This document shows, piece by piece, positions 32,510-34,008 of a stretch of 42,237 nucleotides of DNA. A program made the translations under genes and the position numbers. Under the pieces are notes generated by a model. The model was not told the origin of the DNA. It worked only from the letters and a program-made list of their open reading frames with translations, and searched no databases. The stretch comes from a virus (taxonomy: Duplodnaviria > Heunggongvirae > Uroviricota > Caudoviricetes), in IMG/VR virus record IMGVR_UViG_2880361019_000002, positions 1 to 42,237 of that record; one strand, written 5' to 3'. Position 1 is the first letter of the stretch. Every line of letters begins with the position of its first letter.

Positions 32510-32851
32510 ATGGCGTTCACTGACCTTGAATATCAAGCGGTCAAAAAAGAAGTTCACCAACTCATTGAAAGCATAAGGCCGCCTGAACATATCCGCAATG
32601 AACTGGATATTGTTTATAGCATCAATGACCAAACGATAGATATCGGCGAACAGCGCCCCGTGTGGCAGGGCAACCCAGGTGAAACAAACATCCTGCCATC
32701 AGCAAGAATCAAGTACATACGTTCTCTGGATAGATGGAAAATCTATTGGATGCGGAAGGATATGAAATGGCATCAGTACAGTACTGAACTTTCGCTGACT
32801 GATGCGCTTGAGCTTGTGCGTGCTGACCCGGATTGCTGCTTCTTCGGATGA
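32510..32851 (+). CDS. Hypothetical protein, first gene of cI-downstream cargo cassette
   Basis: 113-aa ORF with strong GAGGAGG RBS; co-directional with cI; no family recognised. Confidence 0.55.
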   Translation: MAFTDLEYQAVKKEVHQLIESIRPPEHIRNELDIVYSINDQTIDIGEQRPVWQGNPGETNILPSARIKYIRSLDRWKIYWMRKDMKWHQYSTELSLTDALELVRADPDCCFFG

Positions 32852-32867
32852 GTGAAGAGACGTTTGG

Positions 32868-33356
32868 ATGATGGATGATCGCAGAGATGCTCGTAGAGCA
32901 TACAGCGATGCAGGAGAATTTATGGCACTTAATTTAGAAAGAATATCTTTTATAACCCCATTTGATAGCAGCGAAGAACCCAACCAACCGACGCTTAATT
33001 TTACATGCAATGAATTTCCTGCGCGGCTATCAATTGATTTCAGGGTTGGTATGATCGGGTTGAAACCAAATTCAAGATATAATTTGGGTATTATGGTAAT
33101 CCCCGCGCACCTAATTATAAAAAAAGGTGAGGAAATTCAATTCCCTGACGGCTCTTCGGAATCAGTTTCACTTTTCATCGATACGAAAGATAGCCATTTT
33201 GAAACAGGGGTTGGCGGACAGGTAATAGTAACATTGAAAGAAATTAGGGTCCCAGCTAAAGGGCTGTATAGTGTTATAGGGATATTGCAAGATAATGAAG
33301 ACCCTAAAAATGAACTTCATAAAAATGAATCATTTTTCACCGTAGAGCTATTATGA
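32868..33356 (+). CDS. Hypothetical protein, second gene of cassette
   Basis: 162-aa ORF, lower GC than flanking lambda-like genes; no family recognised. Confidence 0.5.
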   Translation: MMDDRRDARRAYSDAGEFMALNLERISFITPFDSSEEPNQPTLNFTCNEFPARLSIDFRVGMIGLKPNSRYNLGIMVIPAHLIIKKGEEIQFPDGSSESVSLFIDTKDSHFETGVGGQVIVTLKEIRVPAKGLYSVIGILQDNEDPKNELHKNESFFTVELL

Positions 33357-33973
33357 GTGACGACAGTAATTTAAATAATCATGGAAAGCAAGACACCAAC
33401 ATATCTGAAAGCCGGAGGTTGAAGGTTGTTGGCGGTTCCGATTTTGAGGCTGAATTTGATAATTCTCCCACCAAGGTGCAAAATAATTACATAAAACCGC
33501 CACAAACGGAGGAAGAAGTGGGAACGATCAGCAGAGAGGAACTTGATGCTCGCTTAGCTGCTAATAAAGCAGAGATGGAGTCTATTGCTTCTTCCATTAG
33601 GGCTGACATGGCTCTATCTCGTGAAAGCGTTAATGTCCAATTTGCATCACTTAATGCAGCCATAAGCTCTCTATCGTCCAAGATCGATGGAAAGATGGAT
33701 AGCGCTGCTGGCGATATAAAAGCAATTAATGGGAGATTCGAAGGAATTCAAGGACAAATAACAGGGGTTAATACCGCAATTAGTGGTGTTCAGTCGGGTA
33801 TTTCTATACGATTAGCCATTTTTAGTGTCATTATCGCTGTAATAGTTGCGATTCCCGGGCTGGTATCAGCTTTAAAGTCAGACCACGCACCTTTGCAACA
33901 GCCTTCCACTTTGCAAGCGCCGCCACAAAATACCCAGCCAACAGACAACAAAAAAATCACTCCCCAGCATTAA
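33353..33973 (+). CDS. Hypothetical coiled-coil protein with C-terminal transmembrane anchor, third gene of cassette
   Basis: 206-aa ORF overlapping previous stop (ATGA); heptad-like Ser/Ala/Ile-rich repeats then LAIFSVIIAVIVAIPGLVSAL hydrophobic segment. Confidence 0.55.
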   Translation: MSDDSNLNNHGKQDTNISESRRLKVVGGSDFEAEFDNSPTKVQNNYIKPPQTEEEVGTISREELDARLAANKAEMESIASSIRADMALSRESVNVQFASLNAAISSLSSKIDGKMDSAAGDIKAINGRFEGIQGQITGVNTAISGVQSGISIRLAIFSVIIAVIVAIPGLVSALKSDHAPLQQPSTLQAPPQNTQPTDNKKITPQH

Positions 33974-33981
33974 CGCATTAA

Positions 33982-34008
33982 CCCGGCCTCAGCGCCGGGT
34001 TTTCTTTG
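33982..34008 (+). terminator. Intrinsic terminator after the cI cassette
   Basis: CCCGGC-CTCAGC-GCCGGG hairpin followed by TTTTCTTTG. Confidence 0.7.

Follow-up and report, generated by a model that had tools for sequence, protein, structure and literature searches.

Several genes located downstream of cI, which encodes the repressor, in lambdoid phages, namely rexAB, stk, and hex, are expressed from the promoter for repressor maintenance (PRM) (PMC3564112). Stk of phage 933W, a Tyr/Ser-Thr kinase, is co-transcribed with cI and aborts infection by HK97 (PMC3564112, citing Tyler 2004 and Friedman 2011). The region between cI and N is a hotspot of mosaic diversity with abortive-infection genes, bstA included (PMC8585504). 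Here we describe the corresponding region of a tailed-phage sequence of 42,237 nucleotides (positions 1 to 42,237 of the IMG/VR record IMGVR_UViG_2880361019_000002; this whole stretch is hereafter referred to as the window), in which three open reading frames (ORFs), designated genes 1, 2, and 3, follow cI. The segment 32450-34008, from the cI 3' end to the terminator tM, is the variable cargo slot of a PRM-type repressor operon and consists of two independent cassettes, a single DUF3024 gene (gene 1) and a translationally coupled pair (genes 2 and 3). The pair is proposed, with a probability of roughly 45%, to be a lysogen-expressed exclusion or abortive-infection module that follows the logic of Rex with unrelated proteins. 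The features of the locus are as follows.

31745..32449, plus strand: cI repressor gene (234 residues; Pfam Peptidase_S24 at 3.8e-16 and a weak HTH_3 match), first in the lysogenic PRM-type operon, divergent from cro, cII, and O
32483..32500, plus strand: linker copy 1, GAAGAAACGTTTGGGTGA, in the spacer between cI and gene 1; relic of a lambda-type cI 3' end, reading ..PEETFG-stop
32510..32851, plus strand: gene 1 (ORF1), DUF3024, 113 residues (Pfam PF11225; PADLOC PDLC05018; homologue of L0084)
32854..32871, plus strand: linker copy 2, GAAGAGACGTTTGGATGA, at the junction of the DUF3024 cassette and the HK542-type pair
32922..33356, plus strand: gene 2 (ORF2), 144 residues, predicted soluble beta-sandwich, type-A partner of gene 3
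33353..33973, plus strand: gene 3 (ORF3), 206 residues, predicted tail-anchored coiled-coil membrane protein (alignment, hydropathy, profile matches, phrog_5820)
33980..34008, plus strand: intrinsic terminator tM, the right-hand edge of the cargo slot, kept in 933W and HK542
34203-34231: match to a leftward promoter (PL)

The lambdoid immunity region lies in the inverted orientation in the window, with O, cII, and a cro-like gene on the minus strand. The three co-directional plus-strand ORFs that a preliminary description had placed directly after cI are present, and all are under purifying selection; between homologues at 58-78% amino-acid identity, the nonsynonymous rate (dN) was 0.12-0.33 with the synonymous rate (dS) saturated, and dN/dS was 0.08-0.16 where computable. 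The GAGGAGG ribosome-binding site claimed for the first ORF was located at 32499-32505, 4 nt before the ATG of gene 1, and the ATGA overlap between the gene 2 stop and the gene 3 start, through which gene 3 is translationally coupled to gene 2, at 33353-33356. The tight packing of the same description applies to genes 2 and 3 only, but not to the gaps of 60 nt between cI and gene 1 and of 70 nt between genes 1 and 2. No terminator interrupts the operon between cI and genes 1-3. The operon ends, as described, at a strong intrinsic terminator before PL, with a stem of 8 bp including six GC pairs (33980-34001) and a U-run to 34008. Its folding energy is -17 kcal/mol (z = -4.0; 0/200 shuffled sequences folded as well), and its sequence is identical to the annotated tM of 933W and to the terminator of HK542. 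A scan of the whole window with Rfam gave no match within the locus. The guanine-plus-cytosine (GC) content is 0.375 for gene 2, 0.433 for gene 3, 0.462 for gene 1, and 0.445 for cI; the lower GC attributed earlier to all three genes is thus real for gene 2 and mild for gene 3, but gene 1 is not below cI. A GC content as low as that of gene 2 is typical of acquired cargo.

A megablast search against phages divided the operon into two parts. The C-terminal domain of cI and gene 1 match Shiga toxin (Stx) phages of the 933W type at 98%, and genes 2 and 3 with the terminator match HK542/HK244, again at 98%, from 32853 of the window to beyond the terminator. An 18-bp linker, GAAGARACGTTTGGRTGA, is present twice in the window (32483-32500 and 32854-32871), with 0.00 such repeats expected by chance. 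In HK542 this linker is the genuine 3' end of cI, reading ..QWPEETFG-stop, and the homology to HK542 begins at linker copy 2. In 933W likewise, two linker copies bracket L0084 (locus L002, 2462 and 2833), within an operon of the order cI-L0084-L0083-stk-L0081-tM. The order in HK542 is a lambda-type cI, a 144-residue ORF, a 206-residue ORF, and, further on, PL; since the pair directly follows a lambda-type cI there, it occupies the place of rexAB in lambda. The assignment of the window genes to the rexAB place is therefore sustained, as the genes lie between cI and tM and HK542/HK244 carry the pair after a lambda-type cI. The window, 933W, and HK542 have in common the terminator and a further stretch of about 60 bp past it. 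As linker and terminator are conserved at the ends of the slot, these boundaries can act as recombination sites, and the duplicated linkers around DUF3024 would permit gain, loss, and swapping of cargo via homologous recombination.

Relics of a lambda-type cI 3' end (..NQWPEETFG-stop) were observed at 32471-32500, after the stop codon of the non-lambda cI, and at 32854-32871, after the DUF3024 gene. They are traces of earlier exchange of cargo between immunity types. The repressor itself is a hybrid; in BLASTP comparison with 933W cI, the identity is 95% over residues 81-234, and residues 1-80 could not be aligned. The leftward operator (OL)/PL region (34100-34240) also differs from that of 933W. 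The unrelated residues 1-80, which form the DNA-binding domain, together with the differing OL/PL region imply an immunity specificity different from that of 933W.

The distribution of the DNA of gene 1 and of genes 2-3 was examined in 5,426 complete Escherichia coli genomes. DUF3024 DNA was found in 227 genomes and the DNA of the pair in 51, of which 49 are near full length. All three genes occur together in 18 genomes, at 99.9% identity, and gene 1 without the pair was found in 209 genomes and the pair without gene 1 in about 33. Among isolated phages, the pair was found in HK542/HK244 only. Occasional inactivation of the pair was also observed, by an IS1 insertion in one E. coli genome and as a shortened copy in another (NZ_CP031134.1 H84, NZ_CP027445.1 H91).

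When 80 IMG/VR loci were compared, about 10 alternative cargos were found downstream of DUF3024.

L0083-Stk-L0081: about 31 loci
an unknown 177-residue protein: about 17 loci (L064 and about 16 similar)
the gene 2-gene 3 pair: 11 loci
a ParA-like ATPase of 351-368 residues: 6 loci (L123/L112 among them)
an NYN-domain protein (L075)
two toxin-antitoxin-chaperone-like sets: MqsA/HicB plus SecB-like (L012/L119)
further types: once each

From the independent distributions and the varied cargo after DUF3024, it follows that the three genes are a chance juxtaposition of two cassettes. The single three-gene cassette of the preliminary description therefore has to be given up, gene 1 and genes 2-3 being separately mobile, independently distributed, and parted by a repeated linker; one three-gene system was rejected on these grounds of distribution and junction anatomy. 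We hold this account of the anatomy and modularity of the slot with high confidence.

Stk of 933W matches PD-T4-6 (1e-37) and mad6 (7e-50), and a match to PD-T4-9_C (2.6e-8) was obtained for the SecB-like chaperone of one locus (L012); HicB together with a SecB-like protein was likewise found in the slot. The slot is shared with validated defences, i.e., rexAB, Stk, and a PD-T4-9-like module, and the expectation that it typically carries exclusion or abortive-infection modules was borne out by related prophages, which hold Stk and a PD-T4-9-like module there. In Rahnella, DUF3024 stands alone without a following cargo, and in Erwinia a DUF3024-L0083-Stk block is located at a prophage end, beside dinI. 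Two further loci, L116 (116 and 96 residues) and L120 (88 and 139 residues), also carry a small soluble protein followed by a coiled-coil protein with a C-terminal transmembrane segment directly after DUF3024. These were considered as relatives of gene 3 and rejected; no homology was detectable (hidden Markov model scores of 0-4 bits), so that they are architectural analogues at most. Their presence suggests a recurring architecture in the slot.

Gene 3 is composed of four segments.

33353-33526, plus strand: variable N-terminus (residues 1-58)
33527-33808, plus strand: conserved coiled coil with Gly-rich heptads (residues 59-152)
33812-33868, plus strand: transmembrane helix (residues about 154-172)
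33869-33970, plus strand: Pro/Gln-rich tail

Hydropathy analysis gave one strongly hydrophobic segment, residues 154-172, with a Kyte-Doolittle value of 2.71 (next best, 0.78), which follows the heptad-repeat region; the earlier reading of the third protein as a long coiled coil with a C-terminal membrane anchor is in full agreement. Members of its subtype share, in the N-terminus, the short motif L-(K/R)-V-(V/I)-G-G-S-x-F-(E/D)-A. The conserved coiled coil (SREELDA.LAANKAE...) is followed by Gly-rich heptads (GRFEGIQ GQITGVN TAISGVQ SGIS), and the alignment shows hardly any variation in the juxtamembrane motif ...NTAISG(I/V)QSG(I/L/M)S... When 1.84 billion representative sequences were searched with a profile, 300 proteins scored E ≤ 1e-3, of which 102 reached E ≤ 1e-10; these approximately 300 family members represent clusters at 50% identity. 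Most of the listed proteins are of 150-270 residues, and the same architecture was found in all 31 inspected. The window protein has the defining features of the family, i.e., the S/T-R-E-E-L..NKAE coiled coil, the Gly-rich repeats, and one C-terminal transmembrane segment, and matches phrog_5820 at 1e-76. The single C-terminal transmembrane segment was present in 53/53 members checked, some with only 5-8 residues after it. When 31 remote relatives were searched against Pfam and PADLOC, only sub-threshold coiled-coil families (Baculo_PEP_C, CCDC90-like) and no meaningful PADLOC match were obtained.

The 206 residues reported for the third ORF stand, but the 162 residues for the second do not, gene 2 being most likely of 144 residues. 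Its start was assigned to the ATG at 32922, since all of eight aligned homologues are of 143-144 residues and start at the same Met, and AGGAG is located 5 nt upstream (32912-32916). The 162-residue frame (32868-33356) was rejected, being the longest mechanical ORF only. The predicted fold of gene 2 is a seven-strand beta-sandwich, immunoglobulin/fibronectin type III (Ig/FnIII)-like and soluble, without an enzyme signature, and the protein has no strongly hydrophobic segment. Only 12 sequence relatives were found, and the named ones are all from Enterobacterales. Genes 2 and 3 gave no match in Pfam, NCBIfam, or the PADLOC families, nor by sequence among solved structures, where all three proteins yielded chance-level hits only (AvrPto at E 0.5, RuvBL2 at E 0.27, tail fibre and SmhB at E about 0.5).

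A small gene is located immediately upstream of the gene 3 family member in 47/47 loci, often with a 4-nt overlap. These partners fall into four unrelated clusters, that is, the beta-sandwich of gene 2, two families of about 97-101 residues, and a 112-residue zinc (Zn)-ribbon type with CxxC...CxxC. The partner cluster and the N-terminal cluster of the membrane protein covary without exception (P0-N0, P1-N2/3/6, P2-N4/5, P3-N1), and the partner type switches jointly with the N-terminal 50-110 or so residues. Four remote relatives of gene 3 (profile E of 1e-21 to 1.6e-7), three of them on contigs of 60-63% GC, each have a partner of 84-118 residues, two being of the Zn-ribbon type and two of further types; two of the four follow a regulator gene, S24 or Arc-type. 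Across the wider family, the membrane protein is the constant component, and the small upstream partner comes from at least four to six unrelated families. A Pfam scan of 10 partner proteins detected no domain and no helix-turn-helix or ribbon-helix-helix motif. The pair directly follows a prophage repressor gene, of the S24 cI or the short CI/RacR-like type, in Escherichia, Citrobacter, Yersinia, Pectobacterium, and one remote member, and a few pairs are placed elsewhere, at tail-fibre/dinI moron sites. One remote relative (locus L137, 3206-5802, on a contig of 63% GC) was observed with an Arc-like gene on one side and a probable holin/endopeptidase/Rz set on the other. This locus hints that some members of the family could be tied to lysis.

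For gene 1, the preferred reading is a small protein-binding gene in its own right, which holds the conserved first place in the hotspot and does not belong to the pair. The statement that none of the three proteins is recognisable remains valid for genes 2 and 3, but not for gene 1, which is 97% identical to L0084 of 933W. It matches Pfam DUF3024 (PF11225) over its full length (107.1 bits versus a cutoff of 24.9, E 7.1e-31; residues 4-113 to profile positions 2-112 of 112) and PADLOC PDC-S43 (PDLC05018) at E 1e-40 (residues 1-113 to positions 1-115 of 115). Its AlphaFold (AF2) model, with a mean predicted local distance difference test score (pLDDT) of 90.8, is that of a soluble alpha-beta5-alpha protein, in which an antiparallel sheet of five strands lies between an N-terminal and a C-terminal helix, and hydropathy analysis gave no strongly hydrophobic segment. 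A Foldseek search of BFVD with this model returned no match at E ≤ 0.001. In the open literature we found no mention of DUF3024, L0084/L0083, or the HK244 ORFs; for PDC-S43 no phage-protection test was found there, and the one paper with a mention of it names it among predicted systems. As DUF3024 always comes first in a slot where Stk or PD-T4-9-like modules are frequent, it may owe its label of defence candidate to position, and this constant location beside such cargo accounts for the enrichment of PDC-S43 close to defence genes. The dinI neighbours and a weak resemblance to PsiB are only a lead toward modulation of SOS or induction by DUF3024.

For the pair, the following model is proposed. 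The two proteins would be produced in the lysogen together with the repressor, guarding it against other phages. The gene 2 protein, bound to the variable N-terminus of the gene 3 protein, would act as the specificity element, either a sensor or an antitoxin-like clamp. A cue from an infecting phage would perturb the gene 2 protein, and the coiled-coil gene 3 protein would then be released or reorganised. Its Gly-rich amphipathic heptads and transmembrane segment might act on the inner membrane by depolarisation, pore formation, or premature lysis. The infection would thereby be aborted or excluded, following RexA/RexB logic with proteins that are unrelated to these two. An anti-phage role of some kind is, in our estimate, an even bet for the pair, and the specific membrane-effector mechanism is rather unlikely to be correct. 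The family-wide extension of this model is tentative. The pairs of the gene 3 family may form a widespread, unnamed class of prophage immunity-region modules that reaches hosts of 60-63% GC, in which a conserved tail-anchored coiled-coil effector would be docked through an exchangeable N-terminus to small proteins that replace one another as sensor or clamp (the beta-sandwich and Zn-ribbon types and two to four further ones at least), giving plug-and-play abortive infection or exclusion with Rex-like logic.

A number of observations weigh against the proposed exclusion function. The hotspot position, from which the anti-phage role is argued, is an association and not a function. No homology of genes 2-3 to validated defence proteins was found in PADLOC v2.0 (2023), gene 2 giving nothing and gene 3 only a coiled-coil-type match at 0.016. 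The likeness of gene 3 to pore-forming toxins is far below threshold (MakE, 15.7 bits versus a cutoff of 360; SmhB, E 0.48), and the model of gene 2, with a pLDDT of 67, is of no more than moderate confidence. Plain co-inheritance of adjacent DNA, rather than physical contact, could account for the covariation of partner and N-terminus, and the L137 member adjoins what looks like a lysis cassette. Finally, genes that act on the switch of their own phage are also found at this operon position; in lambda, RexA tips the switch in favour of lytic growth (PMC11077077), and Hex of phage 434 protects the 434 repressor from RecA (PMC3564112).

Four other functions of the pair, and one of the whole locus, were weighed against the proposed exclusion or abortive-infection role. 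Entry could be blocked in the manner of superinfection exclusion (Sie) proteins, the membrane-anchored gene 3 protein together with gene 2 stopping genome delivery at the inner membrane without killing of the infected cell. Many Sie proteins are small membrane proteins (P22 SieA, T4 Imm, HK97 gp15); gene 3 is a predicted inner-membrane protein from a prophage immunity region, and most members of its family have a conserved Pro/Gln-rich tail, QP(I/V)IIQVP, beyond the transmembrane segment, which would face the periplasm. The tail is, however, degenerate in the window copy (PLQQPSTLQAPP) and of 5-8 residues only in some members, and about 150 of the 206 residues of gene 3 and the whole partner are predicted to lie in the cytoplasm; there is no signal peptide, and the only transmembrane segment is C-terminal. 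The variable and presumably specificity-determining parts are cytoplasmic, and an entry block is improbable. A role in the life cycle of the phage itself, i.e., in the lysogeny-lysis switch, in the timing of induction or lysis, or as an XhlA-like holin accessory, and not primarily in defence, is quite improbable. A coiled coil with a C-terminal transmembrane segment resembles XhlA-type lysis accessory proteins, and the L137 pair is just upstream of a putative holin/endopeptidase/Rz set. RexA, on the lambda switch, and Hex, on the 434 repressor versus RecA, act from the same operon position (PMC11077077, PMC3564112). The cassette is nevertheless dispensable and patchy (51/5,426), and within a single immunity type genuine defence cargo can be found in its stead. 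An arms race would account for the high diversity of partners and N-termini better than would housekeeping of the switch of one phage. Moreover, there was no Pfam XhlA match, and the CCDC90-like match reached only 12.6 bits versus a cutoff of 33.5.

Lysogenic conversion unrelated to phages, with a benefit in envelope physiology, stress tolerance, or host niche, would be in line with an AT-rich moron expressed in lysogens of gut and clinical Enterobacterales, and with the lack of defence homology in our searches. We consider it hardly probable, because host-fitness factors, which are more commonly located at the ends of prophages, seldom show such a strict tie to phage repressor genes across distant prophage types or such modular diversification, and because known anti-phage systems occur as alternatives in the slot in the two homologous immunity backgrounds. 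The gene order, a small gene upstream and a membrane-protein gene downstream with a 4-nt overlap, is also that of a toxin-antitoxin-like addiction pair, in which a gene 3 membrane toxin and a gene 2 antidote would stabilise the prophage without sensing of phages, and the covariation of partner and N-terminus suggests cognate specificity. This is highly improbable, since antitoxin features, DNA-binding or protease-labile, were not detected for any partner type, and since the pair lacks its own promoter (only weak promoter-like matches, in smaller number than in shuffled sequences) and rides on the repressor transcript, the loss of which already induces the phage; toxin-antitoxin modules and defence are, in addition, not mutually exclusive. 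As to the whole locus, one three-component defence system would account for the co-directional genes, the shared terminator, and the joint presence at 99.9% identity in 18 E. coli genomes. It is given almost no weight because 209 genomes carry gene 1 only and about 33 genes 2-3 only, because HK542/HK244 carry the pair directly after cI, and because gene 1 precedes about 10 unrelated cargos or none, with a repeated linker at the junction.

Genes 2 and 3 are reasonably regarded as a testable candidate for a Rex-like variant, and the degree of surprise is moderate. The pair has been public as hypothetical ORFs since the EF1204xx immunity-region entries of HK244/HK542, the hotspot was known, and DUF3024 was a listed candidate; in the open literature, HK542 was found only as a challenge phage. 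What is new is that the slot resolves into two cassettes, the recombination boundaries of which are defined, and that pairs of a partner and a tail-anchored coiled-coil protein make up a sizeable family. The strict covariation of partner and N-terminal types and the conserved placement of the pair after repressor genes are new as well. If the pair is an exclusion system, a new protein family would be added to the few repressor-operon defences (RexAB, Stk, BstA, Hex), and a function would be given to HK542/HK244 ORFs annotated only as hypothetical proteins. The modular sensor/effector design, in which partners and N-termini are swapped jointly, would then ease the mapping of phage triggers and would help to account for the variability of the lambda rex position in wild lambdoid phages. 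Independent of function, the linker repeats and the shared terminator show how lambda-type and 933W-type immunity regions exchange cargo, and the locus gives a warning that the defence-candidate status of DUF3024 may come from position. Both points are of relevance to the annotation of Stx and related prophages in pathogenic E. coli.

Several neighbouring features were also noted in the window. The antiterminator gene N (34481-34861) is frameshifted by a 2-nt deletion relative to 933W N, giving MTRRTQFKGNSRSSS and a stop; the remainder is a 100-residue ORF (34559-34861), annotated as a pseudogene by RefSeq in a near-identical genome, and the prophage is therefore probably N-defective. Just downstream of N, at the position of 933W L0079, a 156-residue ORF (34920-35390) has a GC content of 0.35; being very AT-rich and of no known function, it is another moron-like gene. 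An ORF at about 35536-35847 is named "superinfection exclusion protein" (WP_000776961.1) by RefSeq in a near-identical E. coli genome. Elsewhere in the window, Rfam detected the STnc100 small RNA (19647-19833, minus strand), a tRNA gene (20682-20754, minus strand), and the lambda cIII thermoregulator element (35905-35963, plus strand).

The locus can be compared with described systems as follows. With respect to PADLOC PDC-S43, gene 1 is a full-length member, PDC-S43 being a computational candidate. BstA of Salmonella phage BTP1 and Hex of phage 434 are likewise cargo downstream of the repressor gene, as single genes expressed in the lysogen from the repressor promoter (PMC8585504, PMC3564112), but the proteins are unrelated to those of the pair; BstA is large and soluble and acts at phage replication sites, and Hex acts on RecA-mediated cleavage of the repressor. 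The CCDC90-like/DUF1640 and XhlA-type proteins resemble gene 3 in having an N-terminal coiled coil and a single C-terminal transmembrane segment. Sub-threshold CCDC90-like matches were obtained for 11 of the 31 remote family members (best E 6.7e-7), but for gene 3 itself the score was below the cutoff (12.6 versus 33.5 bits) with no XhlA match, and the Gly-rich heptads and the obligatory variable partner set the gene 3 family apart from these proteins. Faint local similarity to the ClyA-family alpha-pore-forming toxins MakA/MakE/SmhB covers the Gly-rich heptads and transmembrane segment of gene 3 (residues about 100-176), where the membrane-inserting region of these toxins is located. The scores, however, are at noise level (MakE, 15.7 bits versus 360; SmhB, E 0.48) and gene 3 is one third of their size, so that the similarity is a lead only toward a membrane-active mechanism. 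The 933W operon shares with the window the C-terminal domain of cI (95% identical), L0084/DUF3024 (97% identical), and the same tM, but differs in its cargo, the window carrying the HK542-type pair instead of L0083-stk-L0081, without a kinase and without a PD-T4-6 match. With regard to lambda RexA/RexB, no Rex family was included among the Pfam, NCBIfam, PADLOC, and Protein Data Bank (PDB) sequence matches of the three proteins. RexB is polytopic, whereas gene 3 has one C-terminal transmembrane segment and a long coiled coil and is not a polytopic channel. In contrast to RexA, a DNA-binding dimer with two domains (PMC11077077), gene 2 is a predicted Ig-like sandwich of 144 residues. The pair of the window is nevertheless like RexA/RexB in its place, after cI and before the operon terminator and PL, and in its composition of two genes, for a soluble protein and then an inner-membrane protein, at a PRM-operon position shared with the repressor.

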